In this document: positions 1 to 41,200 of the stretch, piece by piece
Numbering within the stretch: position 1 is the stretch's first letter
Layout of the letters: every line of letters begins with the position of its first letter
Source of the DNA: Candidatus Binatia bacterium
Lineage (GTDB): Bacteria > Desulfobacterota > Binatia > UBA9968 > JAJDTQ01
Assembly (NCBI GenBank): GCA_951813575.1
Contig: OX638375.1
Coordinates: 3,882,752-3,946,751 of the forward strand
DNA length: 64,000 nt
Direction: 5' to 3'
Translations under genes and position numbers: made by a program
The notes under the pieces: model-generated
Database searches by the model: none
What the model was told of the DNA's origin: nothing
What the model saw: the letters and a program-made list of their open reading frames with translations, nothing else

Positions 1-827
1 TCCTCCCACAGGAAGGAGTAGCCGGACCCGGTGAGCATGATGATGTGGGCGCCGGCGCCGTGGCGGTGGGCCTTCTTGTACTTGCCCACGGGGAACTCCG
101 AGAGGTGTGCGCTCATGGTGTTGTCGACGAACTCGAACAGCGTGGTGCGGTTGCCGCCGCCGCGTTCCTTGTAGTCCTTGGGCGAGAACTGCCACAGGTC
201 CGCGATGAAGTTGGACTCCCACACCCGGCCCTTCTTCACCCCCTCGAGGTAGCGGCCGGGCTGGCCCCATTGGTTGGCGTCGCCCTGGTAGCGGTCGCCG
301 AAGGTAAAGGCGTTGTTGAAGATGTAGTCCAGGTTCCGGTAGCGGTTGATGATCACGGTGGCGTCGGTCAGGGAGATCATCCGCACCGGCTCCCGTCCCT
401 GGGCGTTGAAGTGCTGGAACCAGGTGTTGAGCGGGACGGAGAAGAGGCTTCCCTTCTGCCATTCCAGGGTGTGCTTTCGGCCGCCCTCGTTCCACAGGGT
501 GGTGGCGCCCTGGCCGGACAGGATGAACACGGCTTCCTCGAACAGGTGCCGTTGCGGCCGCAGTTCCCCGCCGGGGGCGATCTCCTGGATCACCGTGTCG
601 CAGGTGCCGCCGGCGCCGTCGAGGTTGACGAAGGCGCCCTTGCCGCCGGTGCGGGCCCAGTCGCCCAGCTCCAGCTCCAGCAGGTCGTCGACGATGAACC
701 CCTTGTACACCGGGATTCCCTCCCACTGCTGGTAGATCTCGTAGGGGCTGACGGGTGCGAAGGCGGAGGCTTCGTTGAGGTTCCGTTCCGATCCGTTGGC
801 GGTCTCGACAGTGGCTGGTTTGCTCAT
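1..827 (-). CDS. Bicupin dioxygenase-like protein (gentisate 1,2-dioxygenase family), partial; C-terminus lies beyond the window start
   Basis: My own translation of the minus strand: ATG at 825-827 (complement), AGGAGT RBS 7 nt upstream, product MSKPATVETANGSERNL...HRHGAGAHIIMLTGSGYSFLWE. Two cupin-like halves; resembles the neighbouring GDO-like genes. The plus-strand ORF 45-842 is a GC shadow ORF. Confidence 0.6.
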   Translation of the reverse strand, partial: MSKPATVETANGSERNLNEASAFAPVSPYEIYQQWEGIPVYKGFIVDDLLELELGDWARTGGKGAFVNLDGAGGTCDTVIQEIAPGGELRPQRHLFEEAVFILSGQGATTLWNEGGRKHTLEWQKGSLFSVPLNTWFQHFNAQGREPVRMISLTDATVIINRYRNLDYIFNNAFTFGDRYQGDANQWGQPGRYLEGVKKGRVWESNFIADLWQFSPKDYKERGGGNRTTLFEFVDNTMSAHLSEFPVGKYKKAHRHGAGAHIIMLTGSGYSFLWE

Positions 828-838: not shown

Positions 839-1858
839 CTAGCGGCGCTCCTCCCGGTAGAGCCCGAAGGCCTCCTTCACCGGGCGGTCGTTGACCGAGA
901 ATAATAGGGCCTCGTCCTTGTGTCCGTTCTCGTGCCGGTGCCAGGACCACAGGGGCACGGTGAAGAAGTCGCCCTGGCTCCATTCGATGCGTTGGTCGTC
1001 GACGATGGTGGCGCCGCTGCCCCGGAACACGTGGTAGATGGTCGTGCTGGTGTGGCGGTGCGGACGTGTCTCCTCGCCGGGCCGGATCATCTGGATCTCG
1101 CAGCCGATGGTCCGCAGCGTGAAGCCGCCGTTCCGGGGGTTGACGTAGCGCAGCAGCACCCCGTCGCACTCGTCTCCCGGGCTCGACGCCAGCGCCTTGA
1201 GGGACTCGTAGGTGGTCTCCCAGGGGTAGCGGAAGGGCGGGTCCGGGAAGTCCGAGAGCTGCTCCGGCGGCCGCGCCCAGCCGAACTGGTGCAGGCTGAA
1301 GTCGGGCATGGCCTCTACCGGTTGCTGTTTCTGGCTGAAGGGCTCCACCGCCATGACCTCCAGGGCCTTGAGCAGGGGGCCGTCGTGGCCGTCCACCCAG
1401 ACGATGTTCTCGCCGGTGCCGTTGTAGTGATCGTGCCAGGTCCACTGGGGCGTGAGGATCAGGTCGCCGGGGTACATGGTGAACCGCTCGCCTTCCACGG
1501 TGGTGAAGGCGCCGCCCCCTTTGATGACGAAGCGCAGCGCGGTCAGGGTATGGCGGTGGGCCTTGGCGATCTCTCCGGGTTTGACCAGTTGGACGGAGGT
1601 GTGCACGGTGTTGGTGGCGCCGGTGACGCCCGGCACGCCGGGATTGAGGAGGCGGATGGTCCGCCGCTCGGACTGCTCCAGGCTGACCAGCTCTCCGGCT
1701 TCCAGCAACCCGTTGTAGATGTGGTTCCACTTCCACAGGTAGGGGACGACGGTGGTCCTGGGCTCGATGACGTCGCCGTCGTTGCCGGTGATGTTGGATG
1801 CCCAGAAACCCGCCAATTGCTTGGTGGCCAGGTCCTTGTTGAGTTCGTCGAGGCTCAT
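839..1858 (-). CDS. Gentisate 1,2-dioxygenase-like bicupin ring-cleavage dioxygenase
   Basis: 339-aa ORF. Two cupin motifs with His triads (HRHTLTALRFVIKGGG... and HRHTSTTIYHVFRGSG...), typical of the GDO / 1-hydroxy-2-naphthoate dioxygenase family. GGGGAGA RBS before the start. Confidence 0.8.
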   Translation of the reverse strand: MSLDELNKDLATKQLAGFWASNITGNDGDVIEPRTTVVPYLWKWNHIYNGLLEAGELVSLEQSERRTIRLLNPGVPGVTGATNTVHTSVQLVKPGEIAKAHRHTLTALRFVIKGGGAFTTVEGERFTMYPGDLILTPQWTWHDHYNGTGENIVWVDGHDGPLLKALEVMAVEPFSQKQQPVEAMPDFSLHQFGWARPPEQLSDFPDPPFRYPWETTYESLKALASSPGDECDGVLLRYVNPRNGGFTLRTIGCEIQMIRPGEETRPHRHTSTTIYHVFRGSGATIVDDQRIEWSQGDFFTVPLWSWHRHENGHKDEALLFSVNDRPVKEAFGLYREERR

Positions 1859-1871: not shown

Positions 1872-2579
1872 TCAGCCTTCGATGCGCCGCATGGCGTAGG
1901 CCAGTCCGCCGCGGTAGGCGCGGTCGATGACCATGCACTGCCTGGCGGCCCGAAGCACCGTGTCGTAGTCCTCCTGGGTGAGCACGTGCTTGTCGTAGAC
2001 GCCGTCCATCATGTCCGAGTGCTCGGTGTCCGCGGTGGAGTGCACGTTCAGCGAGATCATCCGTTTGAGGCTGATGCCCAGCTCGTTCTCGAACTTCTTG
2101 CCGATGCGGTAGGACATGCCGCCGTCCTTGACGATGTCGGGGTTGTTGCGGCGCTCGAGCATCTGGGAGGACGTGAACGAGGCCAGCCACGGGCCCTTGA
2201 CGGCGATGTGGTGCCAGGCAAGGAAGGCCGCCTGGGCCATGGGCGGCAGCTCCGCCTTGTCGAAGTCCTCGCGCTCCAGTCCGATGACCTCGCCCTGCTT
2301 CACCGTGAGGGAGTAGTGGTCCATGCCCGCCCGGGGGTCGTTGATCAGCTCGTCGCTCTCGTGCTGCCACACCAGCGCCTTGACGTCGAGGGGCGAGGCG
2401 GCCTGCACGTAGCCCCAGCAGTCCCGCCGGTTCCGGGTGTAGAGGGCGTTCTGCAACACGTAGTAGCGCCCGCGCTCCATGGTCCAGGGCAGCGTCAGCA
2501 GGTCCTGGAACTCGTCGGTCGCGTACTGGCGGTTGCACATCTCGTTCAGAGTGCTTTTGAGCTTCGCGATATCGGGCAT
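1872..2579 (-). CDS. Heme-oxygenase-like iron-containing redox enzyme family protein (TenA/PqqC/CADD superfamily)
   Basis: ORF 1872-2627. Start moved to the internal ATG at 2579, which has an AGGAGT RBS 8 nt upstream (MPDIAKLK...). Conserved RRDCWG...LVWQHESDEL...H...E motifs shared with the paralog at 2663-3391 and with 36200-36883. Confidence 0.65.
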   Translation of the reverse strand: MPDIAKLKSTLNEMCNRQYATDEFQDLLTLPWTMERGRYYVLQNALYTRNRRDCWGYVQAASPLDVKALVWQHESDELINDPRAGMDHYSLTVKQGEVIGLEREDFDKAELPPMAQAAFLAWHHIAVKGPWLASFTSSQMLERRNNPDIVKDGGMSYRIGKKFENELGISLKRMISLNVHSTADTEHSDMMDGVYDKHVLTQEDYDTVLRAARQCMVIDRAYRGGLAYAMRRIEG

Positions 2580-2662
2580 GTCGTCGGACTCCTGTGGGGC
2601 GCCGGCCGCCGGTTCGATGTCCCACATGGAGGTTTGCCAGTGTGGGACACGCCGCCGGCGAT

Positions 2663-3391
2663 TCAGTCGAGCGCTTCCATCATGTTGGCGAGCTGCTCGC
2701 GGTAGGCCCGGTCGATCGTGAGACTCTCACGGGCGCCCCGAAGGAGCGCCTGCCGCTCATCCTCGGTGTGGCAGTGTTCCCGCGCCACCGCAAGCAGCAA
2801 CTGGCCGTGCTCCACGTCGGCGGTGACGTGCTCGGCATTGTTGATCTGTCGTTTCAACGGAATCCCCAGGTCCCGTTCGAGGTTCTTGCCGACGCGGTAC
2901 GACAGCGAGCCGCCGCGCACGAGGTCGTCGGAGTTGCGCATCTCCAGCACCGCCGACGCCGCGATGGCCTCCCGCCACGGGCGGTCCTTGGCCAGGTGGA
3001 TCCAGGCGTAGAAACAGGCCACGGCCGCGTCCAGCGGACGCACGCGCTCGTAGTCCTCGGGCGACAGGCCGAAGATCCTGCCTTCCTGCACGGCCAGGGT
3101 GATGTGGTCCACCTTGCCCGCGGCCTTGTCTCCCATGAGCTCCTCGCCCTCGTGCTCCCAGACGAGCCGCTTGACGCTCAACGGCGCCGCCCCGGCCACG
3201 AACCCCCAGCAGTCCCGCCGGTTGGCGACGTAGTGCTTCATCTGGATGGAGAGGGCCTGGGCGCGGGCCTGCGTGAAGTGGAGATCCAGCAGCCGGCGAA
3301 AGGGCGGGGTCTCGAACTGCCGGTTCACCAGCTCCACCAGCTCGTGCCAGACGCTCTCCACGCCGTTCCGTTCCGCGCCGTGCGTTTCCAT
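2663..3391 (-). CDS. Heme-oxygenase-like iron-containing redox enzyme family protein (paralog)
   Basis: 242 aa. NRRDCWGFVAGAAP...LVWEHEGEEL...HVTADVEHG. Tandem paralog of 1872-2579. Lies 18 bp downstream of the tctC-like gene. Confidence 0.65.
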   Translation of the reverse strand: METHGAERNGVESVWHELVELVNRQFETPPFRRLLDLHFTQARAQALSIQMKHYVANRRDCWGFVAGAAPLSVKRLVWEHEGEELMGDKAAGKVDHITLAVQEGRIFGLSPEDYERVRPLDAAVACFYAWIHLAKDRPWREAIAASAVLEMRNSDDLVRGGSLSYRVGKNLERDLGIPLKRQINNAEHVTADVEHGQLLLAVAREHCHTEDERQALLRGARESLTIDRAYREQLANMMEALD

Positions 3392-3409: not shown

Positions 3410-4450
3410 CTACTTTGCCCCGACCAACTGCTCGAGCCGCGCCTTGGCCCCCGGCCCGATGGAAAAGACCTGCTTCACCAGGCCCAGGATCTCGGCGCCC
3501 GACAGGTACGATATCTCGATGCCGATCTTCTTGGACGCGGCCTTGAACTCCGGGTCGTCCAGGGTGTTCTTGAAGGCGGTCTGGAGCGCCTCCAGCCGAT
3601 CCTTCGGGATGCCCGGCGGCGTCACGTAGGCGCGGAAGAGCTTGTACGGCGCCAGCCACGCCTCGTAGGCCGCGCGCTCGTCGTCGTTCTTGATGTGGTC
3701 GGCGAACAGCGGCAGGTTCTTGAGCACGGGCTCTTCCTTGTCGCCGGTGGTGAGGAAGGGAATCAGCCGGTCGCCTTCCTTGCCTTTGAGCATTTCCGTG
3801 GCCTGGATCCGCACCGACTCCCACGAAGAGCAGTACCCGTCCACCTCCTTGCGTCCCACCGCCGCGCGGATCTGCGCCGTGCCGTTGTATCCCCTGACGA
3901 CGTTGATCTTGCCGCCCACGAAGTCCCGCAGGATCAGCGGGGTGTCGCGGGTGAGGGTGCCCGCCGATCCGAAGTTGACGGGCTTCGGGGCGTTCAGGAT
4001 CCCCTTGAGGTCGGTGACCCCGGTGCGCGACATCACCATGCACGTGGGCGTGGCCTTGCCGGCGCTCCCCAGCCAGCCGAACTTGGCATTGTCGAACCGG
4101 ATGCCTTTCTCGCCGAGCACCTGCTTCATCACCAGCCCGCTGTTGGTCGCCCCGATCACCGAGCCGTCGCGTTTGGCGACGTTGTAGAGGTAGTTCATGG
4201 CGATGGCAAAGCCGGCGCCGGGCATGTTCTGGACGATGATCTTCGGGTTGCCCGGAATGTGTTGGGTGAGAGTGCGGGCGATGGTGCGGGCGTAGGTGTC
4301 GAAGCCTCCTCCCGGAGACGAGCCCAGGATGAACCGCAGGGTCTTGCCCTTGTAGAACTCCGCCACGTCGGCCCATGCGGTGGCCGGAACGGCCACGCAG
4401 AGGAGCAACGAGAATGCGGCAGCAAATCGGTACGGATGTCTCATCGGCAT
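3410..4450 (-). CDS. TctC/Bug-family periplasmic substrate-binding protein (tripartite tricarboxylate transporter receptor)
   Basis: 346 aa. N-terminal signal peptide (AAFSLLLCVAVPATAWA). Typical Bug-family length and motifs (GGGFDTYAR, QNMPGAG). Confidence 0.8.
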   Translation of the reverse strand: MPMRHPYRFAAAFSLLLCVAVPATAWADVAEFYKGKTLRFILGSSPGGGFDTYARTIARTLTQHIPGNPKIIVQNMPGAGFAIAMNYLYNVAKRDGSVIGATNSGLVMKQVLGEKGIRFDNAKFGWLGSAGKATPTCMVMSRTGVTDLKGILNAPKPVNFGSAGTLTRDTPLILRDFVGGKINVVRGYNGTAQIRAAVGRKEVDGYCSSWESVRIQATEMLKGKEGDRLIPFLTTGDKEEPVLKNLPLFADHIKNDDERAAYEAWLAPYKLFRAYVTPPGIPKDRLEALQTAFKNTLDDPEFKAASKKIGIEISYLSGAEILGLVKQVFSIGPGAKARLEQLVGAK

Positions 4451-4537: not shown

Positions 4538-5986
4538 TCACAACCGGTCCGCCCATTTCGCACGGACCTTGGCCTTGTATTCGGCGCTGACGCCGGAAAT
4601 GCCTGGGAAGTCGTCCTTCCAGGCGTAGGGCCGGCAGGCGTCCACCACCATGCAGCCCGTGGTCAGCTCCCGGCGTTGCTTGTCCTCGGGCGAAAGCCGC
4701 GGGTTGAGGATGCTGGCGGCCACGTCGAGGATCTCCGAGTCGCTCCTGGGGTCCCAGCGGGTGGACATGGCCCAGAGCACCTCGCCCACGTTGGTGATGT
4801 CCACGTCCTCGTCCACCACGATGACCATGCGCACGTCCCGGCCGCCGTCGCGGGTGGCGAGGACGCCGTATCCCGCCTGCTTGGCGTGGCCCGAGTAACG
4901 CTGTCTGACCGCCACGGTCACCACGAAGCGCCCCTGCTTCGGGAACCATACGCCCTGGACGTCCGGGATACCGGCCCGCTCCATGGCCGACCAGATGTTG
5001 GCGGAGCGGATGTACTTGTGGGTCTCGCTGTTGAGGAAGGTCCTGAGAGGCGGATCGCCGGTGATAATGGGATCGTCGCGGTGGTACACGGCTTCCACCT
5101 TCACCACCGGAGCCTGCCGGGAACCGGACGCGTAGTACCCGGGCCACTCACCGAACGGCCCCTCCTCGTGGGTCTCCTGTTCGGGGGGCGGTATATGGCC
5201 CTCCAGGACGATGTCCGCGAAGGCGGGTACGGGCAGCCCGGTCTTTTGTGCCTTGATGACCGGGACCGGGGTCTCCAGGAGCCCGCCCAGGAAGTCGTAC
5301 TCGCTCATGTTCCAGGGGATGCCCACGGCGCTCGCGGTCATCATGCCCGGGGGCAGGCCGCAGACGATGGCCACCGGGCAGCTCTCGCCCCGGGCCCAGT
5401 ACTTCCGGGTGATCAGGTCGCCATGCTTCCCCGGGATCATCCACACGCCCACGGTGTTCTCGTCGTGGACCTGGACGCGGTAGGTGCCGACGTTGACGTA
5501 GCCGGTATCGGGATCGCGGCAGACCGTGGCGGTGAACGTGCCGATGTAGCGGCCGCCGTCATCCGCGTGCCATTTGGGCGTGGGGAACTTGAGCACGTTG
5601 ACGTCGCCGTCGAAGGCGACGTTCTCCAAAAGCGGCGATTCGCCGATCTCGGTCGGGGGGATGGGCTTCAGATCCTGGAGCCGCCCCTTGACGGCCTGGA
5701 CCACCTCCAGACCGCGGACGTCCGGCGGCATGCCCAGGGCCAGGGCGTCGGACTCGGGCGACCGGAGGACGTTGCTGAGCACGCGGTAGCCTTCCGGGTG
5801 ATCCGGAACGGCGTCGAAGAGCAGCGCCGAGCCCTCGCCGGATTCGGCCGCGATCTCGGTGAGGGCGCCGATCTCCAGGTCCCAGTGGGCGTCGCGGATC
5901 TCCTTGAGCTTTCCCGCCTGCCTGAGCCGGTGGATGAAAGTCCGCAGGTTCAGGGCCGCTTCAACGTCCCGTGGCTCGCTCGTCAT
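4538..5986 (-). CDS. UbiD-family (prFMN-dependent) aromatic acid decarboxylase
   Basis: ~480 aa. UbiD-like sequence throughout (…KFPTPKWHADDGGRYIGT…GIPWNMSEYDFLGGL…). Start taken at ATG 5984-5986 (MTSEPRD). Confidence 0.8.
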   Translation of the reverse strand: MTSEPRDVEAALNLRTFIHRLRQAGKLKEIRDAHWDLEIGALTEIAAESGEGSALLFDAVPDHPEGYRVLSNVLRSPESDALALGMPPDVRGLEVVQAVKGRLQDLKPIPPTEIGESPLLENVAFDGDVNVLKFPTPKWHADDGGRYIGTFTATVCRDPDTGYVNVGTYRVQVHDENTVGVWMIPGKHGDLITRKYWARGESCPVAIVCGLPPGMMTASAVGIPWNMSEYDFLGGLLETPVPVIKAQKTGLPVPAFADIVLEGHIPPPEQETHEEGPFGEWPGYYASGSRQAPVVKVEAVYHRDDPIITGDPPLRTFLNSETHKYIRSANIWSAMERAGIPDVQGVWFPKQGRFVVTVAVRQRYSGHAKQAGYGVLATRDGGRDVRMVIVVDEDVDITNVGEVLWAMSTRWDPRSDSEILDVAASILNPRLSPEDKQRRELTTGCMVVDACRPYAWKDDFPGISGVSAEYKAKVRAKWADRL

Positions 5987-6202
5987 GCATCCATCTCCAT
6001 GGGATGTTGGATCCGAGGGTCGGTCCGCAACCATCCATAGGCCCTATAGGCCCACCGCGGGCGGCTGTCAACCTGGACATCCGCGCCCATTTTGTCTAAG
6101 CGTGTAGGGGCGGGTTTCGGACCCGCCCGCGCCCGGTCACGACCGACACCGCCACCGACCGGGGCCGGGACACAGCCATTCACAGGAGGTCGAGAAGCAG
6201 AC

Positions 6203-29719: not shown

Positions 29720-30987
<1,268 letters not shown>

Positions 30988-30990
<3 letters not shown>

Positions 30991-31130
30991 ACTCCGGGCT
31001 TGACCCGGGGTCCAGGCGTCGAACCGGCCAGGTCGCCCCTTCGCTGGACCCCGGGTCAAGCCCGGGGTGACGGGAAGTGGATCCGGGGTGACGGGAAGTG
31101 GATACGGGGTGACGGAGAGTGTCCCCGGGG
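30988..31130. repeat. Composite palindromic repeat element, family 1 (left arm / loop / right arm / 22-bp tandem x2.5)
   Basis: CTCCGGGCTTGACCCGGGGTCCAGG ... CTGGACCCCGGGTCAAGCCCGGGGTGAC, followed by GGGAAGTGGATCCGGGGTGAC x2 plus a partial unit. Confidence 0.7.
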
Positions 31131-31197
31131 CAGCGGGACGCCGGTTTCCGAACCGCACCGGGGATTGGTATGGTACACGCCACAGGAGGTAACGCCC

Positions 31198-32004
31198 ATG
31201 CAATGGCTTGAGAACGAGGTGGCCGTCGTGACCGGGGCCGGATCGGGAATCGGCAAGGCGATTGTGGCCCGTTTCGTCGAGGAGGGCGCGAAGGTGGTGG
31301 CCTTCGACCTTTCGGATACGCGACTGGCGGCCCTCAGGGACGAGGTGGGCGACAACGTGGCCGTGGTTTCCGGCGACGTGAGGAGCCTGGAGGATAACCG
31401 CCGGGCGGTGGCCGCGGCGGTGTCGCAGTTCGGCCGGTTGACCGTCTTCGTGGGCAACGCCGGCATCCACGATGCCAGGCGGCCCTTGGCGGAGCTTTCG
31501 GACGAAGAGCTGGAGCAGGGCTACGACGAGGTCCTCGGGGTCAACGTCAAGGGCTACTTCCTGGGCGCCAAGGCCGCCATTCCCGAGCTCATGAAGACCC
31601 GTGGAAACATGGTGTTCACGCTTTCGACATCGTCCTACTACGTCAGCGGCGGCACCCTGTACGTCGCCTCCAAGCACGCCGCCCTGGGCATGGTCCGGCA
31701 GTTGGCCAACGAGCTGGCGCCGACGGTCCGGGTCAACGGCGTGGCGCCGTCGGGCACGTCCACCGGCCTGCGCGCGGCGCCGTCGCTGGCGGCCGGCGCC
31801 GGCGGAGACGACGTCTTCGGCGCCCCCCGTCCGCCCGCGGGACTCGGCAAGAACCTGCTGGAGGTCGCCGTGGTCCCCGAGGACCACGCCGCCGCCTACG
31901 TGATGCTGGCCTCGTCCCAGTCCCGCATCATGACCGGCGAGGTGATCCACACCGACGCCGGCCGCGGGGTGACGTCGGTGCTGGCGCCTCTGGGCAAGTC
32001 TTAG
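31198..32004 (+). CDS. SDR-family oxidoreductase (cis-dihydrodiol dehydrogenase-like)
   Basis: TGAGSGIGKA Rossmann motif at the N-terminus, YxxxK (YVASK). 268 aa. The longer ORF from 30973 merely runs through the repeat. Confidence 0.8.
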   Translation: MQWLENEVAVVTGAGSGIGKAIVARFVEEGAKVVAFDLSDTRLAALRDEVGDNVAVVSGDVRSLEDNRRAVAAAVSQFGRLTVFVGNAGIHDARRPLAELSDEELEQGYDEVLGVNVKGYFLGAKAAIPELMKTRGNMVFTLSTSSYYVSGGTLYVASKHAALGMVRQLANELAPTVRVNGVAPSGTSTGLRAAPSLAAGAGGDDVFGAPRPPAGLGKNLLEVAVVPEDHAAAYVMLASSQSRIMTGEVIHTDAGRGVTSVLAPLGKS

Positions 32005-32023: not shown

Positions 32024-32506
32024 CTAGAACAGTCCCGCCAGGTACGGCTCCGGCCAGGGCACGTGGAGGATGTGCTCGAACACGCCGTAGATGAACGTCC
32101 AGGCCAGCGCCGCCAGGAGGCACGACAGGAACCAGCCCCCGCCGTAGGCCTTGGCGTAGCCGAAGACGAACAGCGGCACCGCGGTCGGAAACCCGATGAC
32201 CCGGATGGCGAAGTAGAAGCCGAGGATCCAGGCCCAGACCTCGAGGTTGCCCCAGCGGCTCCCCGACCGCAGGGCGGGCGCGTCGAAGTGGATGCCCTCG
32301 GGCTCTTCCGTGCCGCGGCCGGGTCGCAGATCCCTCAACACCTGGACCGCGGCCAAAAAAACTCCGATGCCGCCGAGCAGGAACACGATGATGGATGCCC
32401 GCAGCTCGTCCCAGCCGTCGGCCACGCGCAGCGCCCAGAGCAGCACCAGCCCAATGACCACGGTGAAGAGAACACCCTCGTAGTGAAGCCGCCTGTCCCG
32501 GTTCAT
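32024..32506 (-). CDS. TctB-like small permease of tripartite tricarboxylate transporter
   Basis: 160 aa, ~4 TM. Overlaps the tctA stop by 4 nt. Confidence 0.6.
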   Translation of the reverse strand: MNRDRRLHYEGVLFTVVIGLVLLWALRVADGWDELRASIIVFLLGGIGVFLAAVQVLRDLRPGRGTEEPEGIHFDAPALRSGSRWGNLEVWAWILGFYFAIRVIGFPTAVPLFVFGYAKAYGGGWFLSCLLAALAWTFIYGVFEHILHVPWPEPYLAGLF

Positions 32507-33999
32507 GCCTCACCTGTTCCGGCGGCGCGCTGCCGCCGCTCGCGCCGCTCCTTCCAGATCGGGTAGCAGAGCGACAACGCCACCAGGGCCAGCAGGATGA
32601 CGACGGCCGGGCGCAGCAGCCACTCGAATCCGTAACGCGTGTAGGAAAGCCACAGGTAGGTCTCCATCTTGGTGCCGAGCACCACCCCCAGGAGCAGCGG
32701 CGGCCGCGGCCAGCCGTGCCGCCGCATCATGAAGCCCAGCAGCGAGAACACCAGCAGCGCGCGCAGGTCGTTGACGCTGAAGTTGGCGGCGAAGGCGCCG
32801 ATGAAGACGAACACCGCCACCAGCGGCACGATGCTGTGGAACGGCATGAAGCATGCCCGTGCCATGGGCTTGGCGAGGGCGCCGCACATGGCCACCGCGA
32901 TGACGTTGCCGATGACCAGGGTCCAGATCACCGCGAAGGTGAGGTCGAGCTGCGTGGTCAGCATGTCCGGACCGGGCTTGATGCCCACCGCCACGAAGGC
33001 CGTGAGGATCAACGCCGTGGAGGTGCTGCCCGGGATGCCGAAGGCCAGGGTGGGGATGTATCCGCCGCCTTCCTTGGCGTTGTTGGACGCCTCGGGCGCG
33101 ATCACCCCGCGTATGTCGCCCTTGCCGAAGTTCTCGGTGTTCTTCTCGGTCTGCACCGCGTGGGCATAGGCGAACCAGTCGGCAACGGAGCTGCCGAGTC
33201 CCGGCAGGAAGCCGACCCATGCGCCGATGGCGGAAGACCGGACCATCAGCCACCAGTGCCGGAACACGTCCTTGATGCCGTCGAGGAAGCCGCTGCCCAG
33301 CTCCTCGTGCTCGGCGATGCTGGTCTTGCGGCTCGCCAGGTCGATGATTTCGGGAATGCCGAACAGTCCCAGGGCGACGATGATGAGGCTGATGCCGTCC
33401 CAGAGATAGTCGTAGTCGAAGTCGAACCGCGGGATCCCCGACTTCACGTCCATGCCGATGGTGGCCACCAGCACGCCGATGATGCCGGCGATGATGCCCT
33501 TGACCGGGGCGTTGCCGCTCAGCACCGCCACCATGGTGAGGCCCCACAGGGTCAGGACGAAGAACTCCGGCGAGCCGAAGGCCAGCACCAGGGGACGCAG
33601 AATCGGCAGGGAAGCCACCAGCACCAGCGCGCCCACGAACCCGCCCAGCAGCGACGCGGCGAAGGACGCGCTCAGCGCCCGGGCGGCCTGCCCCTGCTTG
33701 GCCAGGGGATAGCCGTCCAGGATGGTTGCCTGGGAGCCCGAGCTGCCGGGTATGGAGATGAGTATGGAGGGGAAGGCGCTGGCGGTGTTCCCCACGGCGT
33801 CCAGGCCCACCAGTAGCGCGATGACCGGATAGGGATCCTGCATGGTCATCACGAACGGGAGCATGATGGCCAGCGTGGTGGGGCCGCCGATGCCCGGCAG
33901 GAACCCCACCATGCTCCCGATCAGCACTCCCAGGGCCATCATGCCCAGGGAGTGCAGGGTCAGGATGCCGAGCAGGCCGTCAAACGCGGCTTCGAGCAT
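32503..33999 (-). CDS. TctA large permease of tripartite tricarboxylate transporter
   Basis: 498 aa, highly hydrophobic. TctA-family glycine-rich motifs (GFLPGIGG, AFGIPGS). Confidence 0.85.
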   Translation of the reverse strand: MLEAAFDGLLGILTLHSLGMMALGVLIGSMVGFLPGIGGPTTLAIMLPFVMTMQDPYPVIALLVGLDAVGNTASAFPSILISIPGSSGSQATILDGYPLAKQGQAARALSASFAASLLGGFVGALVLVASLPILRPLVLAFGSPEFFVLTLWGLTMVAVLSGNAPVKGIIAGIIGVLVATIGMDVKSGIPRFDFDYDYLWDGISLIIVALGLFGIPEIIDLASRKTSIAEHEELGSGFLDGIKDVFRHWWLMVRSSAIGAWVGFLPGLGSSVADWFAYAHAVQTEKNTENFGKGDIRGVIAPEASNNAKEGGGYIPTLAFGIPGSTSTALILTAFVAVGIKPGPDMLTTQLDLTFAVIWTLVIGNVIAVAMCGALAKPMARACFMPFHSIVPLVAVFVFIGAFAANFSVNDLRALLVFSLLGFMMRRHGWPRPPLLLGVVLGTKMETYLWLSYTRYGFEWLLRPAVVILLALVALSLCYPIWKERRERRQRAAGTGEA

Positions 34000-34005
34000 C
34001 CACTG

Positions 34006-35055
34006 CTACTTTTTCTTCTTGCCCGTGGGCAGGCCGTGCTCCTTGCGGATGTTGAAGAGGAAGTCCTTGACCTCCTGGGAGGCATTGGTGACCTCCAGGA
34101 CCAGCTTCGCCGTGGCCGGACCGGCACGGGTCCTCCAGGCCTCGCCGAAGAACTTGGTGGCCTGTACCTTGAACTCCGGGTCGTCCACCATCTTGCCCCA
34201 GGCCCCATGCAGGACGTTCATGACGTTGTCGGGCGTTCCCTTGGGGGCGTGCAGAAACTTGTCCACGTCCGAGGGTCCGGCCCACACCTTGAAGGCCTGC
34301 CACGCCACGCCGGAGGGCCTCTTGTCGCCCATCAGCTCCTGGAAGGTCGGGATGTCCGGGAAGTCCCTGCGGCGCTTGTCCGTAAGCAGCACGAGCGGAT
34401 CCACGACGCCGTCCTTCTGGAGGTCCCGGATGAGCTTGGCGTTGCCGGTGCCCCACATCTCGATCTCGCCCTGGCGCAGCGCCAGCACCATCTCGCCGGT
34501 GCCCGCGTAGCCGAAAATCCAGCGGTTGTTCCAGCCCAGATACTTGGCTCCCCACACGGTCATGGCCACCCACGTGCGGATGCCGTCGGAATCGCCCACC
34601 ACCACGGGCTTGGCCTTGGCATCGGTGAGGCGCTTGCGGGCGTCCTTCCGCACCATGAGGATGCTGCCGCCCCGCATGATGGAGCCGACGTACGAGTACG
34701 TGCGGGGATTGAACTTGACCCGCTTGCCGCCGCGCACGTAGGTGCTGAGCGCCGACGACGAATCCTGCAGCAGCGTCAGCCCGTCCGGTTTGGCCCGGCG
34801 CGTGTAGTAGTTGTTGACCACGGTGCCGCCGCCGCCGGGCATGTTCTGCACGATGGTCTTGGGGTTGCCGGGTATGAATTTCGGCAGAAAACGGGAAACC
34901 AGCCGAGCGGTGGCGTCGGTGCCGCCGCCGGGGCTGGAGGAGACCAGGACCCGGATGGTCTTGCCCTCGTAGTAGTCGGCCGCGGGCGCCGGGGCGGCGC
35001 ACAGGACGATCGCCGCAAGGATCGAAGTCAGTATCGTCGCACGGTATCCATCCAT
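34006..35055 (-). CDS. TctC/Bug-family periplasmic substrate-binding protein
   Basis: 349 aa. Signal peptide. Bug motifs (SSSPGGGTDATARL, QNMPGGGG). Confidence 0.8.
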   Translation of the reverse strand: MDGYRATILTSILAAIVLCAAPAPAADYYEGKTIRVLVSSSPGGGTDATARLVSRFLPKFIPGNPKTIVQNMPGGGGTVVNNYYTRRAKPDGLTLLQDSSSALSTYVRGGKRVKFNPRTYSYVGSIMRGGSILMVRKDARKRLTDAKAKPVVVGDSDGIRTWVAMTVWGAKYLGWNNRWIFGYAGTGEMVLALRQGEIEMWGTGNAKLIRDLQKDGVVDPLVLLTDKRRRDFPDIPTFQELMGDKRPSGVAWQAFKVWAGPSDVDKFLHAPKGTPDNVMNVLHGAWGKMVDDPEFKVQATKFFGEAWRTRAGPATAKLVLEVTNASQEVKDFLFNIRKEHGLPTGKKKK

Positions 35056-35119
35056 GGTTAGGGTTCCTCCTTCGCTGGCACGCTCTGGATATTATGGTTA
35101 TCGACGCAGTGTCAACCGG

Positions 35120-36172
35120 CTACATGCCCATGCCGGATTCGTCCAGGCTCTCCTGGCGGTGCAAGCCGAAGGCTTCCAGCACCGGGGCGTCGTGCATGGA
35201 GAAAAGGATCGCTTCGTCTTCAGCCGAGCGGTTGGCGTGCTCGTGCCAGCTCCACAACGGCACGATGAAGGTGTCTCCCTTGCTCCATTCCAGTGTCTCG
35301 CCATTGATCACCGTGGCGCCGCTGCCACGGAACGCGTGGTAGATGCTCGTGCTGTTGTGGCGGTGCGCCCGGGTGCGCTCGCCGGGGCGCAGCATCTGCG
35401 CCCGGCACGCCAGCGTCGGCAGGGTGCTGCCGCCGGTGAGCGGGTTCACGTAATCCAGGGCGACGCCGTCATAGGGGTCGGCCGGGGTATCGGCCAGCGC
35501 CTGGAGCGAACGGTAGGTGTCCTTCCACCGGTAGTGGAGCGGCGTCGGCGCCGCCCCGTCGCCGGAACGCACCGGACGGGTCATGCCGAAGAGGGACGCT
35601 TCCTGCCCGCTCGCGTGGGTGGCCTGTTTCTCTTCGGAGTAGGGCTCGTAGGAGATCACCTGCAGCGACTGGATCAGCGGCACGTCGAGGCCGTCGAGCC
35701 ACACCATGGGCTCGCGGCCCTCGTGGCCGTGGTCGTGCCAGGTCCACTGGGGCGTCAGGATGAGGTCCCCCTCCGCCATCATCAACTTCTCGCCGTTCAC
35801 CACCGTGTAGGCGCCCTGGCCCTGCACGATGAAGCGGATGGCGGCCATGGTGTGACGGTGGGCGGGAGCCACCTCGCCGGGCTGGATCATCTGGCAGGCC
35901 AGCAGCATGGTGTGGCTGGTCATCTCGATGTGCCGCATCCCGGGGTTGACCAGGCGAATGGTGCGCCGCTCGGTGCGGCCCTTCTCGATGCCGATCCGGT
36001 CGCGGGCCTGTCGGAGACTGTCGTAGACGTCGTCCCACTTCCACAGGTGCGGCACCACCTTCGTCTGGGGGTCGGGCGTGCGCTCGTGGCGGTCCAGCTT
36101 CCACAGGCCGGAAAGCCAGCGGTCGGCCAGGAAGTTGTCCAGCTCCGTCAAATCCTGCGTTTCGGTCTTCAT
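35120..36172 (-). CDS. Gentisate 1,2-dioxygenase-like bicupin dioxygenase (paralog)
   Basis: 350 aa. HRHTMAAIRFIVQGQG and HRHNSTSIYHAFRGSG cupin motifs. ~45% identical by eye to 839-1858. Confidence 0.8.
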   Translation of the reverse strand: MKTETQDLTELDNFLADRWLSGLWKLDRHERTPDPQTKVVPHLWKWDDVYDSLRQARDRIGIEKGRTERRTIRLVNPGMRHIEMTSHTMLLACQMIQPGEVAPAHRHTMAAIRFIVQGQGAYTVVNGEKLMMAEGDLILTPQWTWHDHGHEGREPMVWLDGLDVPLIQSLQVISYEPYSEEKQATHASGQEASLFGMTRPVRSGDGAAPTPLHYRWKDTYRSLQALADTPADPYDGVALDYVNPLTGGSTLPTLACRAQMLRPGERTRAHRHNSTSIYHAFRGSGATVINGETLEWSKGDTFIVPLWSWHEHANRSAEDEAILFSMHDAPVLEAFGLHRQESLDESGMGM

Positions 36173-36199
36173 CGCGGTGCCCTCGACAGGAACGCGCGT

Positions 36200-36883
36200 T
36201 CAGCGCAGCTCGTAGCCCATCTCGTAGTGGATGTAGATGCCGTCGAAGAAGAACCAGCGCATCTTGGCGCTCTCCCGCGCGTAGTCGACGGCCATCTGCT
36301 GGAGCTCGGGGGTGGTGCAGTACCGTTCCAGGATCTCGAAACCCCGCCCGCCGTGCTCCGTGTCCACCTCGGCGTGGAGCCAGAAGTGCTCGATGTCCGC
36401 TTCGTCGAAGCGGTAGAGGTCGCGCAGGGCGGGTAGCACCTTGCTGTACAGCATCGGCGACTGGGACTCGGTGCCGATGTTGGTGGCGGCTACGCTGCAG
36501 ATGAAGGACTCGTCCTTGCACACGCGGTTGAACCACGTCGCCCAGGCTTCGGTGGTGGGCAGGCCGCGGCCACGCCGGGCGGCCTCGGCGTCGGCGCCGT
36601 TGGCGGTGGCGAAGCGCAGGATGATGTCCAGGTGCGGCCGTTCCGGGTCGCTCTCCTCCAGGTAGTTGCCGAGCAGGAGCCCTTGCACCTCCAGGGGCGT
36701 GTTGGCCGCCTTGTAGAGCTCTCCGCGGTAGATGTTGCTGATCCAGTGGTACTGCTCGATGGCCCAGCCCGCCATGGCGTTGCGGCTGAGCTTGCCCGCC
36801 GCCCACTTCTCGGTGAGTGGATGGTTGGCGCAGTGCCGTTCCAGCACGGCTGCTTCGAGCCGTTCCCGTAGCGAGCTCGCCAT
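36200..36883 (-). CDS. Heme-oxygenase-like iron-containing redox enzyme family protein (TenA/PqqC/CADD superfamily)
   Basis: 227 aa. …EQYHWISN…HAEVDTEHGG… motifs. Confidence 0.6.
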   Translation of the reverse strand: MASSLRERLEAAVLERHCANHPLTEKWAAGKLSRNAMAGWAIEQYHWISNIYRGELYKAANTPLEVQGLLLGNYLEESDPERPHLDIILRFATANGADAEAARRGRGLPTTEAWATWFNRVCKDESFICSVAATNIGTESQSPMLYSKVLPALRDLYRFDEADIEHFWLHAEVDTEHGGRGFEILERYCTTPELQQMAVDYARESAKMRWFFFDGIYIHYEMGYELR

Positions 36884-37004
36884 GTGCGACTCCCTTCCGA
36901 CTTGCGTGTCCGCGCCCCATGCGCCGGCCGCGGCAGGCCGGGCGATATCAGCACGCCCCGGCCGTGGCTGTCAAGCGCGGCACCGTGGATGCGGCCGGCG
37001 AGGA

Positions 37005-37385
37005 TCATTCCTTCCGGGGCAGTCGATCCCGCTTCACCACCACCCGTTGGTGGCGACCTTCGCCGATCTTCTCCCGTTCGTTGTACGCCTCCACCGTGAA
37101 GGTGAGCCGGCGCCCTTCGACCTCCACGAGCCGGGCCGAGGTGCGGACGGTCTCGCCGATCCGGGTCCCGGCGATGTGAGAGATTTCAACGCGGACCCCC
37201 AGGGAAACCTCGTCGTCGTCGAGGTACGGGGCGACGGTCTCCACGCAGGCGCGCTCCATGTGCCCCACCATGGCCGGGGTCGAATACACCACGAAGCCCT
37301 CGTCGGCAATGTGCGCCGCCGCCATTTCCTGGGTCGTTTCGATGATCCACTGGCCTTCGAGCCCTTCCTTGAGTTCGTCTTTCAT
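37005..37385 (-). CDS. Hotdog-fold thioesterase-like protein
   Basis: 126 aa. Pattern resembling small FlK/4HBT-type acyl-CoA thioesterases (…STPAMVGHMERA…). Not verified. Confidence 0.45.
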   Translation of the reverse strand: MKDELKEGLEGQWIIETTQEMAAAHIADEGFVVYSTPAMVGHMERACVETVAPYLDDDEVSLGVRVEISHIAGTRIGETVRTSARLVEVEGRRLTFTVEAYNEREKIGEGRHQRVVVKRDRLPRKE

Positions 37386-37488
37386 CCTGCCTCCCGGACT
37401 ATGGGGATCCTCGTGCTGTCTGATTGCCTGTTCCCCGTTCCCTACTATTGGCGATATCGTCTATACTGTGAACCGGTCACGATCCATC

Positions 37489-37680
37489 ATGGAAAAGGTC
37501 GTTCGAAAATTCGCATCCTTCGCCGAGGAAGAAGAAGCGGAGTACTCTTACTACCGCCGGCTCTCTGGTGCCGAAAAATTGCAAATCCTGCTTGACCTGA
37601 TCATGCCCGAGAATCCCGATGCGGGAACTATCGACCGATCTGCGCGAGTTCATCCACTTGCTGAACACGAGCCGTGTTAA
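37489..37680 (+). CDS. Small hypothetical protein (possible partner of downstream nucleotidyltransferase)
   Basis: 63-aa ORF in a lower-GC segment. Overlaps the next ORF in another frame. Weak. Confidence 0.2.
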   Translation: MEKVVRKFASFAEEEEAEYSYYRRLSGAEKLQILLDLIMPENPDAGTIDRSARVHPLAEHEPC

Positions 37681-38074
37681 GTACATGCTCGTAGGTGCAT
37701 GGGCACTGGCTCTTCATGCCCGGCCTCGCTATACGGCCGATGTGGACGTGTTTGTGGAGCGAAGCCCGGAGAACGCCGGGAGGCTGATGGAGGTTATCGA
37801 AAAGTTCGGGTTTGGCGGCATCGGGATTGAAGCGGCGGATTTCCTGCAGGTCGACTGCGTGATCCAGCTCGGCAGGGCGCCGAACCGAGTCGATCTTCTC
37901 ACGGGCATCAGTGGAGTCGGCTTCGATGAAGCCTGGGAAGATCGGGTCACGGCGACCCTGTCCGGTGTCGAGGTGGCCGTCATCGGCCGAGAGCATCTGA
38001 TCCGAAACAAGCGGGCTGTGAACCGCGCGAAGGATCGCGCCGATATCGAGTGGTTGGAGCGCACCGGTCGGTAG
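37619..38074 (+). CDS. Minimal nucleotidyltransferase-fold protein
   Basis: 151 aa. VGAWALALH…TADVDVFV resembles the hG[GS]…DxD signature of small nucleotidyltransferases. Located in a locally lower-GC insert. Confidence 0.4.
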   Translation: MRELSTDLREFIHLLNTSRVKYMLVGAWALALHARPRYTADVDVFVERSPENAGRLMEVIEKFGFGGIGIEAADFLQVDCVIQLGRAPNRVDLLTGISGVGFDEAWEDRVTATLSGVEVAVIGREHLIRNKRAVNRAKDRADIEWLERTGR

Positions 38075-38110
38075 CCTTGGCGGGCTCGTGAAAGGAAGGT
38101 GTCCTGAATC

Positions 38111-39289
38111 ATGAACGCGGCATTGCAGGGGACCATGGCGCTGGATCTGAGCGGCCACGTGGCCGGGCCGTTTTGCGGGAGCCTTTTGGGAGACCTCGGG
38201 TGCGACGTGATCAAGGTGGAGCTGCCGGACGGAGGCGACACCCACCGTGGCCGGAATCCCTTGTACGAGGGCTACGGGCCGAGCTTCCGGGCGCTCAACC
38301 GCAACAAGCGGAGCCTGACCCTGGACCTGCGAAACCCTCAGGGGAAGGAGATCCTGCTCAAGCTGCTGGAGAAGGCGGATGTCCTGCTGGAGAACTTCCG
38401 TCCCGAGACGCGCGTGAAGCTGGGGCTCGACTACGAGCGCCTGTCCGAGCTCAACCCGAGACTGGTCCATTGCTCCATCACCGGCTACGGGCAGGAGGGC
38501 CCCTACCGCGACAAGCCGGGGTTCGACACCATCGGCCAGGCCCTGAGCGGCATGCTGAGCCTGATGACCGACTTCGACAAGCCCAAGGTGGTGGGGGTGT
38601 CGGTCACCGACCATTCCACCGGAGTGTTCGCCGCCTACGGCATCCTGGCGGCGCTGATGGCGCGCCACCATACCGGCCGCGGCCAGTTCGTGGACGCGTC
38701 GCTCCTGCGCATCAGCCTGGCCTTCATCGAGTCCCACATGGCCGACTACCTGAACGGCGGCGAGGCCATCACCCGGGAGAACTTTCCGCGGGGGCGTATC
38801 TATTGTTTCGTCCCCAGCGACAAGAAAGCCCTGGTGATCCACCTCTCCGGACACCAGAAGGCGTGGGAAGGGCTGGTGACCGCGGTGGAACGCCGGGACC
38901 TGCTGGACGAGCCTCGTTTCGCCACGCGAAAGGACCGTTGGGAAAATCACTACGATATCGTTCCCATCCTGCAGGCGGAGTTCGAGAAGAAGCCGCGAGA
39001 TCACTGGCTCAAGGCGCTGGACGCGGTCAGTGTTCCCAACGCGCCGATTTACAAGATCGACGAGGTGCTCGACGATCCGCAGGTGGCGGCGCTGGGGCTA
39101 CCGCAGGAGATCCGGCATTCCAGAATGGGGTCGAGCAACCTCATCGGAAATGCGATCCAGCTTTCAGACACGCCCATGCAGTTTCACCGCGCCGCGCCGC
39201 TGCTGGGCGAGAACACCGAGGAGATTCTCCGCGGGCTGGGTTATGACGAGGAGGCGTTGGCGGAGTTGCGGGACAACGGCGTGACGTGA
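38111..39289 (+). CDS. Family III CoA-transferase (CaiB/BaiF family)
   Basis: 392 aa. Characteristic N-terminus LDLSGHVAGPFCGSLLGDLGCDVIKVE and the conserved Asp region. Confidence 0.8.
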   Translation: MNAALQGTMALDLSGHVAGPFCGSLLGDLGCDVIKVELPDGGDTHRGRNPLYEGYGPSFRALNRNKRSLTLDLRNPQGKEILLKLLEKADVLLENFRPETRVKLGLDYERLSELNPRLVHCSITGYGQEGPYRDKPGFDTIGQALSGMLSLMTDFDKPKVVGVSVTDHSTGVFAAYGILAALMARHHTGRGQFVDASLLRISLAFIESHMADYLNGGEAITRENFPRGRIYCFVPSDKKALVIHLSGHQKAWEGLVTAVERRDLLDEPRFATRKDRWENHYDIVPILQAEFEKKPRDHWLKALDAVSVPNAPIYKIDEVLDDPQVAALGLPQEIRHSRMGSSNLIGNAIQLSDTPMQFHRAAPLLGENTEEILRGLGYDEEALAELRDNGVT

Positions 39290-39318
39290 GGGCGGTGCCA
39301 GTGATCGGGAGGCGTTCC

Positions 39319-39966
39319 ATGACGAGCAGCGAATTCGTTCAGGAGTTGCGGGACAAGGTGAAAGCGTTCTGCGCCACCCTCGACGACCGGCCGCCGGCCT
39401 ACAGCTACGTTCCGCTGAGCACCGACGAGGAGCGTGTCCGGGTCATGAAGAGCCGGCTGTGGAACGAGCTTCGGGCCGCGGATCTTTTCGGCGGCTGGCT
39501 CAGGACCACGCCGGAGTTCGAGGTCAAGACCATGATGGCGCGGTCCGCCCACGAGGAGATGGTGCACGCCGGGCTTCTGTCGGCGCGCATCCGGGAGCTG
39601 GGTGCGGACCCCTTCGACTACCGCCCGCTGCCGGCGCAGATGTCCATGTTCAGCGCCATGGAGGGGCTTCGGGACAGTTGCCAGCGGTTGGCCGGCTTCT
39701 CCATGGGCGGTGAGGGAATCGCCAACTACCTCATCGAGAAGTGCTTGGCCGCGCCCTCGGTCCCCGACTGGATCAAGGCCCCGTACAAGCGCATCCTGGC
39801 CGACGAGGAGGGTCACGGCACCGGCCCCGAGGGAATCCTGGAGCGTTACGCCACCACCCCGGAGCTCCAGGACGCCACCCGCCGGGCCGTGGCCATGCGC
39901 CTGGTGCTTATGCGGGAGTACCTCGCCAGCCTGGACCGGTGGGCCATGAACGAGTCGGAATGGTAG
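39319..39966 (+). CDS. Ferritin-like diiron-carboxylate protein (putative oxygenase component)
   Basis: GGGAGG RBS. Two ExxH motifs (HEEMVHAG, ADEEGHG) separated by ~100 aa. Confidence 0.4.
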   Translation: MTSSEFVQELRDKVKAFCATLDDRPPAYSYVPLSTDEERVRVMKSRLWNELRAADLFGGWLRTTPEFEVKTMMARSAHEEMVHAGLLSARIRELGADPFDYRPLPAQMSMFSAMEGLRDSCQRLAGFSMGGEGIANYLIEKCLAAPSVPDWIKAPYKRILADEEGHGTGPEGILERYATTPELQDATRRAVAMRLVLMREYLASLDRWAMNESEW

Positions 39967-40091
39967 TGGGTCGAAACCTGGGCAGGGTGAATTTCGCGCG
40001 GGCGCGATTCTTGACGGCTAAAGACCGGTAATGCTAGACGCTAGAGTAGGTGCGCGAGAATGTTCGAAATGTTCACAAGGGGGTAGATCAA

Positions 40092-41153: not shown

Positions 41154-41166
41154 TCCGAGGGTTCGA

Positions 41167-41200
41167 AAGCCGCCCGCCTCCGGGCGGCTTTCCTTTTTCC
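41167..41200 (+). terminator. Rho-independent terminator
   Basis: AAGCCGCCCG-CCTC-CGGGCGGCTT followed by TCCTTTTTCC. Confidence 0.55.

Follow-up and report, generated by a model that had tools for sequence, protein, structure and literature searches.

A stretch of 64,000 nucleotides from a Candidatus Binatia bacterium (contig OX638375.1; hereafter the window) contains 2 gene clusters in which a gene for a heme-oxygenase-like (HO-like) protein precedes one for a 2-domain cupin protein (bicupin) related to gentisate dioxygenases (GDO-like). In the cluster at 32024-37385, a gene for a FlK-like thioesterase is followed by those for the HO-like protein HOa, the bicupin GDO2, and the tripartite tricarboxylate transporter (TTT) components TctC2, TctA, and TctB. 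In the cluster at 3-6034, 2 HO-like genes (HOb1 and HOb2) precede the gene for GDO1, a paralog of GDO2. A comparison across genomes showed that this succession of an HO-like and a GDO-like gene is a real, conserved, and lineage-specific association. Both clusters share this design rule with the rest of the Binatia, where it involves 3 barely related HO-like subfamilies and differing binding proteins. On the basis of genomic context, we tentatively propose that FlK-HOa-GDO2-TctCAB is an uptake and ring-cleavage cassette for a carboxylic acid of the salicylate or gentisate type, possibly a heteroaromatic one, in which HOa is accessory; we give this proposal a little less than an even chance of being correct.

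One genome per GTDB species was scanned with an alignment of the bicupins, which yielded 79 loci, nearly all from metagenome-assembled genomes (MAGs) labelled Candidatus Binatia or carrying older, Deltaproteobacteria-type names. An HO-like gene was directly adjacent to 48 of the 80 GDO-like genes in these loci, or to 48 of the 72 that could be assessed after leaving out 8 at contig edges. In 47 cases, the partner shared the strand of the dioxygenase gene and lay upstream of it, -3 to 339 bp away; in 1 case, it lay downstream. As background, HO-like genes made up 1.5% of the approximately 805 other genes called in the same loci. A naive binomial test gives P ~1e-68 for this adjacency, but the value is not valid because many of the loci are orthologous, and the number of independent clades was used instead. 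By this measure, the association is present in at least 5 separate dioxygenase clades and in 3 HO-like subfamilies. Members of the GDO1 clade and of the deeper branches represented by loci L087 and L089 are paired with HOb, the GDO2 clade is paired with HOa, and several clades are paired with HOc, a third group, confirmed by Pfam as TENA/Haem_oxygenas_2, which adjoins more distant dioxygenases.

A sequence-only reading of the window had interpreted the 2 clusters as instances of a single three-part system (uptake, ring cleavage, and diiron oxidation), which implies that an ancestral TctC-GDO-HO module was duplicated as a unit and that its paralogs co-diverged as sets. All 3 families are indeed present in both clusters, and the HO-like subfamily tracks the dioxygenase clade. 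Partners also co-diverge within lineages, as the pairwise identities of the dioxygenases are correlated with those of their HO-like partners, with r = 0.99 in the HOb and 0.74 in the HOc group. The paralogs in the window are old, as had been claimed: GDO2 and GDO1 share 49.9% identity over 339 residues, TctC2 and TctC1 29% (E 1e-35), and HOa shares approximately 18% identity with either HOb protein by BLASTP (E 0.001-0.05) or 21% in a profile-profile alignment (E 2e-9). These identities rule out a recent duplication. Between lineages, however, the expected co-divergence breaks down, with dioxygenases at 50-64% identity and HO-like partners at 25-29% over partial alignments. Comparing HOa with HOc loci, the dioxygenases are 59-68% identical and the HO-like partners approximately 29%; for HOa and HOb loci, these values are 49-54% and approximately 25%, the partners again being aligned over part of their length. 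Within lineages, the HO-like proteins evolve no faster than the dioxygenases, and HOc is mostly the better conserved of the two (approximately 73% where the dioxygenases are at 65-70%). Gene order and HO-like copy number differ as well: the supposedly repeated order is UbiD-TctC1-HOb1-HOb2-GDO1-(cupin3) in one cluster and FlK-HOa-GDO2-TctC2-TctA-TctB in the other, so that they have only the succession of HO-like and GDO-like genes in common. The discordance between lineages, along with a second one involving cupin3 (see below), argues against a co-duplication of the 2 pairs and against duplication of a fixed module in general, which we consider very unlikely. Judging from these divergences, the pattern would fit a scenario in which different, anciently separated HO-like paralogs were recruited or differentially lost.

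The second discordance lies in the first cluster. The arrangement UbiD-TctC1-HOb1-HOb2-GDO1 is conserved in loci L079-L088, and downstream of GDO1 lies a gene for a third bicupin, cupin3. The window had been said to contain 3 GDO-like paralogs, but there are only 2, as cupin3 is a distant relative that scores 33.8 bits against the GDO profile. It is 93% identical to a protein of 371 residues encoded at L079:9069-10184, which in turn is 79% identical to the bicupin encoded after HOb1 and HOb2 in L006. Orthologs of HOb1 and HOb2 are found in the same order, at 62-65% identity, in the distant Binatia loci L006-L011. There, they are followed by a bicupin of 360 residues with 24-33% identity to GDO1 and GDO2, no relative of GDO1 is present, and the preceding genes encode NMT1/phosphonate-type binding proteins in place of TctC. 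Since the orthologous loci contain cupin3 but lack GDO1, the conserved core of this cluster does not include GDO1. The deeply conserved core rather consists of a binding protein, HOb1, HOb2, and cupin3, the last of which is better conserved across lineages than the HO-like proteins themselves. Only in the lineage of the window does GDO1 separate HOb2 from cupin3; it may have been inserted there, unless it was lost elsewhere, and it is not the deep partner in this cluster. The C-terminal cupin of cupin3 carries the motif HRHGAGAH...WWHQH. On a single Binatia contig (L032:7100-14400), genes of these types occur in a row as HOc-GDO-DHDPS-cupin3-like-HOc-DHDPS-GDO, which shows that they have been recombined as building blocks. 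The idea that GDO was simply inserted into a conserved HOc-DHDPS frame was dropped, as HOc is 30-35% and DHDPS 41-46% identical between the locus types.

Among close relatives, the surroundings of GDO2 are well conserved. The best locus, OY761465.1 (L012), encodes a GDO2 that is 97% identical to that of the window and neighboring proteins that are 91-99% identical, and 21 close relatives (L001, L012-L030, and L081) share the gene arrangement that extends from the amidase on one side to TauD/glyoxalase on the other. A CoA-transferase gene is syntenic in all 21, and the match to a neighboring ferritin-like protein is missing from the synteny listing for 5 (L014, L016, L025, L030, and L081). With the exception of L081, which gave no FlK match, all close relatives have the FlK gene immediately upstream of HOa or, after loss of HOa, of GDO2. 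The tctCAB genes are absent in L001 and L027; a remnant of 60 residues of TctA between GDO2 and the gene for a short-chain dehydrogenase/reductase (SDR) in L027 indicates that they were deleted. In the dioxygenase tree, the losses of tctCAB and of HOa fall at dispersed positions within the GDO2 clade, which leaves GDO2 as the sole constant member of the three. The three-part system is therefore not conserved as such: TctCAB has been deleted in 2 relatives, and the HOc and distant HOb loci carry NMT1-type binding proteins in place of TctC.

GDO2 resembles the 1,2-dioxygenases of known structure that act on gentisate or salicylate, with E-values of 8e-72 to 3bu7 and 2.5e-70 to 2d40. Like these, salicylate 1,2-dioxygenase (SDO; 2phd), and MabB, it is a full-length bicupin with a three-histidine iron site. 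Residues H105, H107, and H146 of the N-terminal cupin align with the SDO iron ligands H119, H121, and H160 and are invariant in the alignment, while R69, Q94, R113, H148, and D160 correspond by alignment to SDO residues R83, Q108, R127, H162, and D174. In SDO, the latter residues take part in carboxylate binding, hydroxyl deprotonation, and contact with the 5-substituent (PMC10306065). Both sets of residues are invariant in all 12 family sequences aligned, including GDO1. In contrast to the characterized enzymes, the second cupin domain of GDO2 retains an HxH...H motif. By its residues, GDO2 is predicted to be a catalytically intact dioxygenase of the gentisate class, and we conclude that GDO2 and GDO1 are likely to cleave the ring of an o-hydroxy-carboxylate that carries a polar substituent at position 5, without being assignable to a known substrate. 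The NCBIfam model that both match best is the 5-aminosalicylate dioxygenase MabB.

The HO-like proteins were compared through profiles built for HOa (121 sequences), HOb (122 sequences), and HOc. PF14518 matches all 3 HO-like proteins of the window. HOb1 and HOb2 are 44% identical, and the HOb and HOc profiles barely recognize each other (E 0.05). The solved structures closest to HOa are a 4-aminobenzoate synthase (9pj4, 6.7e-20) and CADD (1e-11), the latter of which it matches over its whole length. These belong to the self-sacrificing p-aminobenzoate (pABA) synthases of the CADD (CT610) and Nitrosomonas type, with which HOa shares the fold and a six-residue dimetal site. All 6 of its metal ligands (E77, H84, E139, H170, D174, and H177) are of the CADD type and are retained in 120-121 of 121 homologs. 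Putative ligands could be assigned in HOb1 (E84, H96, E150, H188, D192, and H195) and HOb2 (E93, H104, E158, H196, D200, and H203) by motif position rather than by structure, and HOc has a similar pattern of histidines and carboxylates with different spacing. An AlphaFold model of HOb1 (pLDDT 90.6) gave CADD as its best fold match (TM 0.75/0.84), followed by PqqC and BesC; TenA was among the matches as well. It is plausible from these residues that HOa binds metal and activates O2, in line with the diiron oxidation that had been ascribed to it.

The reaction of HOa is probably not that of CADD. Tyr27 of CADD is sacrificial and essential for activity, and a Y27F mutant is inactive (PMC9522330). 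The equivalent residue in HOa, T24, is threonine in all 121 homologs, and a valine aligns with CADD Lys152. HOa scores 81.2 bits against the model for CADD-type pABA synthases (TIGR04305, cutoff 200) and 24.7 bits against that for PqqC (TIGR02111, cutoff 240). The score rules out an assignment as PqqC and, together with the threonine, one as a CADD-type pABA synthase; the context is also catabolic-looking rather than folate-related. From its sequence, HOa would belong to the heme-oxygenase-like dimetal oxidases/oxygenases (HDOs), with a reaction different from those of CADD and PqqC. More distant HOa relatives, 34% identical, were found in a plasmid search on the megaplasmid of Cupriavidus metallidurans CH34 (L091) and on Caballeronia pSBC2-4 (L092) in a conserved cluster; none has a cupin neighbor. 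The verified genes beside the HO-like gene in L091 encode an ornithine cyclodeaminase, an aldehyde dehydrogenase, and a ferredoxin-NAD(P) reductase, and L092 is annotated, in addition, with a heme-binding protein, 2Fe-2S ferredoxins, a GntR regulator, and an MFS transporter. Such a context of a reductase, ferredoxins, and an aldehyde dehydrogenase fits a role for HOa as an oxygenase.

In the cassette that we propose, TctCAB would import an aromatic or heteroaromatic acid, and GDO2 would cleave this acid or a derivative of it. HOa would play an accessory part, as a two-metal oxidase or oxygenase that activates O2 and turns a related precursor into the substrate of GDO2. Three observations suggest that HOa would act before GDO2 rather than after it. 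First, diversity among the HO-like subfamilies far exceeds that among the dioxygenases, and a diversity above that of the ring-cleavage enzyme is the usual pattern of substrate-specific peripheral enzymes. Second, HOa has been lost from loci in which GDO2 and the transporter persist, as would be expected if the imported compound can be cleaved directly. Third, its relatives in Cupriavidus and Caballeronia adjoin the genes for a ferredoxin-NAD(P) reductase and an aldehyde dehydrogenase. The substrate of HOa could perhaps be a CoA thioester, since the cluster is flanked by genes for a hotdog thioesterase and a CoA-transferase. Bacillus halodurans encodes a hotdog gentisyl-CoA thioesterase (BH1999) as part of a gentisate cluster (PMC516016), and a route to gentisate through a salicyloyl-CoA 5-hydroxylase (SdgC) is known (PMC13215587). 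The thioesterase next to a gentisate-type dioxygenase and the CoA-activating enzyme nearby recall such CoA-dependent routes from salicylate to gentisate, but this analogy is only a lead. Activation in the window would depend on a class III CoA-transferase, not a ligase. Unlike an HDO, the known salicyloyl-CoA hydroxylase is a flavoprotein.

Several findings weigh against this proposal. HOa is absent in 4 (L019, L020, L030, and L081) and degraded in 2 (L012 and L016) of the 22 close relatives that keep GDO2, and all 6 of these loci keep TctCAB as well. In L012 (7495-7970), residues 46-163 of HOa have been deleted internally and the 3' end of the gene is degenerate, while in L016 HOa is broken, possibly by a sequencing error. 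HOa is therefore not essential for the function of the dioxygenase, nor is it the obligate member that a fixed system would require; by sequence, it appears to be decaying in some lineages, and the copy in the window appears intact. Proteins of the HOa family, at 60-67% identity, also occur without any bicupin, such as a homolog from Chloroflexota (67% identical) whose gene has arginine-biosynthesis genes as neighbors on one side and NMT1, then ribosomal-protein genes, on the other. Conversely, one clade of the dioxygenases has no HO-like partner and is flanked by genes for Amidohydro_2, M24, UbiD, and binding proteins. GDO2 scores below the curated cutoffs for MabB (NF049978, 340.7 bits, cutoff 650) and gentisate dioxygenase (TIGR02272, 277.7 bits, cutoff 442.1), as does GDO1 with 317 and 297 bits, respectively. 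In addition, Leu90 of GDO2 is found at the position of SDO Trp104, which is a tyrosine in most gentisate dioxygenases and contacts the 5-hydroxyl group of gentisate. With the low scores and this leucine, the substrate cannot be assigned. The operon contains no gene for a reductase or ferredoxin, and neither an FAH-type hydrolase nor a maleylpyruvate isomerase was found among the window genes scanned. Finally, every genome in the comparison is a MAG from an uncultured organism.

The lack of such a hydrolase and isomerase in the window genes scanned would be explained if the HO-like protein acted after ring cleavage, replacing these enzymes by hydrolyzing, deaminating, or oxidizing the fission product. 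The fold supports both hydrolytic chemistry, as in TenA, and cofactor-free oxidative chemistry, as in PqqC, and these proteins were both among the fold matches; furthermore, the product of the best-matching family, 5-aminosalicylate dioxygenase, needs deamination. However, the 6 metal ligands are near-invariant in HOa homologs and conserved in HOb, and to our knowledge TenA and PqqC use no such site. An enzyme acting on the fission product would also be expected to remain orthologous along with the dioxygenase, rather than to be drawn from 3 barely related subfamilies, and to be kept where GDO2 is kept. We therefore consider a role after cleavage unlikely.

Alternatively, the HO-like genes could be functionally independent of the dioxygenases, for example in a CADD-like self-sacrificing or cofactor-forming reaction, with their adjacency inherited along with the neighborhood in a gene-dense catabolic island. 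The relationship of HOa to pABA synthases, the Chloroflexota homolog without a nearby bicupin, and the repeated losses of HOa are consistent with this, and the phylogenetic relatedness of the loci means that raw adjacency counts overstate their independence. On the other hand, the adjacency recurs in 3 HO-like subfamilies and at least 5 dioxygenase clades, with short gaps and the same orientation in all but one locus, and both the invariant threonine at the position of Tyr27 and the low scores against the CADD and PqqC models speak against a CADD-like or PqqC-like function in particular. This explanation, too, seems improbable to us.

The possibility that the cluster is biosynthetic was weighed in light of SznF, an enzyme of N-nitrosourea biosynthesis in which an HDO domain is joined to an iron-binding cupin domain. 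As in SznF, a putative HO-like dimetal oxygenase is found here next to a predicted cupin iron enzyme, and nearly all characterized HDOs are biosynthetic. The cluster could thus be a split version of such a unit, in which the HO-like protein N-oxygenates a small molecule, the cupin rearranges it, and the transporter handles the precursor or product. The two are encoded here by separate genes, however, and the cupin is a two-domain, full-length homolog of gentisate dioxygenases with the substrate-binding residues of that family. Nonribosomal peptide synthetase, polyketide synthase, or other biosynthetic genes are not found nearby. Instead, the neighbors encode an amidase, Amidohydro_2 proteins, a CoA-transferase, a dihydrodiol-dehydrogenase-like SDR, and TauD and NicX-like oxygenases, and TTT systems are uptake systems. 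We attach very little probability to this interpretation.

The preferred reading of an uptake and ring-cleavage cassette includes a transporter that is complete, as TctC2, TctA, and TctB all pass their Pfam thresholds. TctC2 has a hydrophobic, signal-like segment at its N-terminus, and TctB has 4 hydrophobic segments. The genes are ordered C-A-B rather than in the canonical order tctC-tctB-tctA, which is a convention of the family and not a functional requirement. TctC1 of the first cluster is an orphan; its Pfam TctC score of 21.7 is below the cutoff of 27, so that its assignment to the family depends solely on its resemblance to TctC2. The plus strand encodes a third TTT system at 60604-63995, where TctC3 (60604-61653) is followed by a TctA-TctB fusion of 718 residues. 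The fusion comprises TctA at residues 1-495 and a TctB-like C-terminus at approximately 550-718, in the same order as the separate pair at 32024-33999. Binding proteins of TTT systems are known for aromatic and pyridine carboxylates, namely TphC (PMC8556258) and Bug27/Bug69 (PMC11452294). Nothing specific linking TTT systems to gentisate was found in the literature searched.

The coordinates of the genes discussed here are given in Table 1. The open reading frames (ORFs) for TctC2, GDO2, and HOa lie exactly where the sequence-only reading had placed them, all on the minus strand, and Pfam backs their family assignments. Their position directly upstream of tctA-tctB was likewise borne out. The gaps between successive genes are 121 bp (FlK-HOa), 27 bp (HOa-GDO2), 64 bp (GDO2-TctC2), 6 bp (TctC2-TctA), and -4 bp (TctA-TctB). 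These tight gaps and the shared strand fit an operon, and the genes are most simply read as a single predicted transcription unit in the order FlK, HOa, GDO2, TctC2, TctA, and TctB. Scans for consensus promoters and terminators gave counts no better than those in shuffled sequence. A six-frame profile scan of the window revealed no GDO-like or HO-like gene beyond GDO1, GDO2, HOa, HOb1, and HOb2. The protein encoded at 39286-39966, which has a weak BLAST match to HOa, was rejected as an HO-like protein because it is ferritin-like by profile.

Table 1. Genes of the two clusters and their possible partners in the window.
Feature	Position	Strand	Family match or basis
FlK-like hotdog thioesterase (gene 1 of the operon)	37005..37385	-	PF22636 FlK 7.5e-35; 4HBT 3.6e-6
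HOa, heme-oxygenase-like (CADD/PqqC-like) dimetal protein, putative, 227 aa	36200..36883	-	PF14518 Haem_oxygenas_2 1.2e-20, 74.5 bits
GDO2, predicted gentisate/salicylate-class bicupin ring-cleaving dioxygenase, 350 aa	35120..36172	-	Cupin_2 x2, 2.3e-30
TctC2, periplasmic binding protein, TTT family	34006..35055	-	PF03401 51.3 bits, cutoff 27
TctA, large membrane subunit	32503..33999	-	PF01970 3.5e-128, 428 bits
TctB, small membrane subunit	32024..32506	-	PF07331 9.3e-10, 39 bits
Class III CoA-transferase, divergent from operon, possible partner	38111..39289	+	PF02515 7.8e-106
Ferritin-like protein, divergent from operon, possible partner	39286..39966	+	Weak ferritin-like/COQ7 matches
UbiD-family decarboxylase, heads first cluster	4538..6034	-	
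TctC1, orphan binding protein	3410..4450	-	
HOb1	2663..3391	-	PF14518
HOb2	1872..2627	-	PF14518
GDO1, paralog of GDO2	839..1858	-	
cupin3, third bicupin, 3' of GDO1, runs off window start	3..827	-	Translation; GDO profile 33.8 bits

FlK and the CoA-transferase are divergently transcribed, and in the intergenic region that separates them (37400-38110), the plus strand contains an ORF of 151 residues for a DUF2204/DUF6036 nucleotidyltransferase (37619-38074), which may be a small toxin-antitoxin-like insertion. At its position, L001 has only an ORF of 90 residues. On the other side of the operon, an IS110-family transposase gene (29983-30969, plus strand) lies between the SDR gene and the gene for the NicX-like protein and has no counterpart in any of the 21 syntenic relatives. 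The adjoining SDR ORF (30973-32004) has an artificially long N-terminus, with homology beginning at approximately residue 60-76. The wider surroundings (26714-29697 on the minus strand and 40050-46773 on the plus strand) are rich in oxygenases and hydrolases and are syntenic in relatives. They include 2 tandem TauD-family genes (59% identical), 2 Amidohydro_2 genes, and genes for the NicX-like protein, a CmcJ/NvfI-family oxidoreductase, an amidase, a CMD-family protein, and a 2OG-Fe(II) oxygenase, which hints at catabolism of N-heterocycles or aromatic amides. Further away, 23743-26091 on the minus strand encodes a class I Glx-tRNA synthetase of 782 residues with a C-terminal GatB/YqeY domain.

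Compared with known systems, uptake of aromatic acids by TTT systems and ring cleavage by gentisate-class dioxygenases are both familiar, and the HDO partner is the new element. Like TctCBA, the terephthalate system TphC-TpiBA, and the Bug27/Bug69 systems for quinolinate, the cassette has all 3 transporter components. It differs from known gentisate dioxygenase systems in the partnership with an HO-like gene and in the lack of an FAH hydrolase or isomerase nearby. According to a 2026 review, characterized HDOs serve the biosynthesis of natural products and cofactors, and their sole link to a cupin is the SznF fusion (PMC13108848). No report of an HDO or PqqC-like protein in ring cleavage of the gentisate type was found in the literature searched. 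Going further, the HDOs may have a catabolic branch, in which the 3 or more diverged Binatia subfamilies would be substrate-specific arene or heteroarene oxygenases, or oxidative decarboxylases, that feed a gentisate-class dioxygenase, with HOb1 and HOb2 as a possible heterodimer and cupin3 as a second type of dioxygenase. Such a branch is possible, if on balance rather doubtful.

For the annotation of genomes such as these, the 2 clusters illustrate that the repetition of family names (TctC, cupin, and HO-like) within one window does not prove that a module was duplicated. The clade-structured pairing of HDOs and dioxygenases provides concrete candidates for new chemistry in the HDOs, a superfamily that is being actively studied, and the clusters in Cupriavidus and Caballeronia offer a tractable system in cultured bacteria for an HDO with a catabolic-looking context. 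If such a catabolic branch exists, this would be the first role of the HDO superfamily in the degradation of aromatic compounds, and gentisate-like intermediates would be made without flavin-dependent or Rieske hydroxylases. The setting is a lineage that is widespread in soil and groundwater but uncultured, and the pairing suggests how the Binatia may process aromatic or N-heterocyclic acids.

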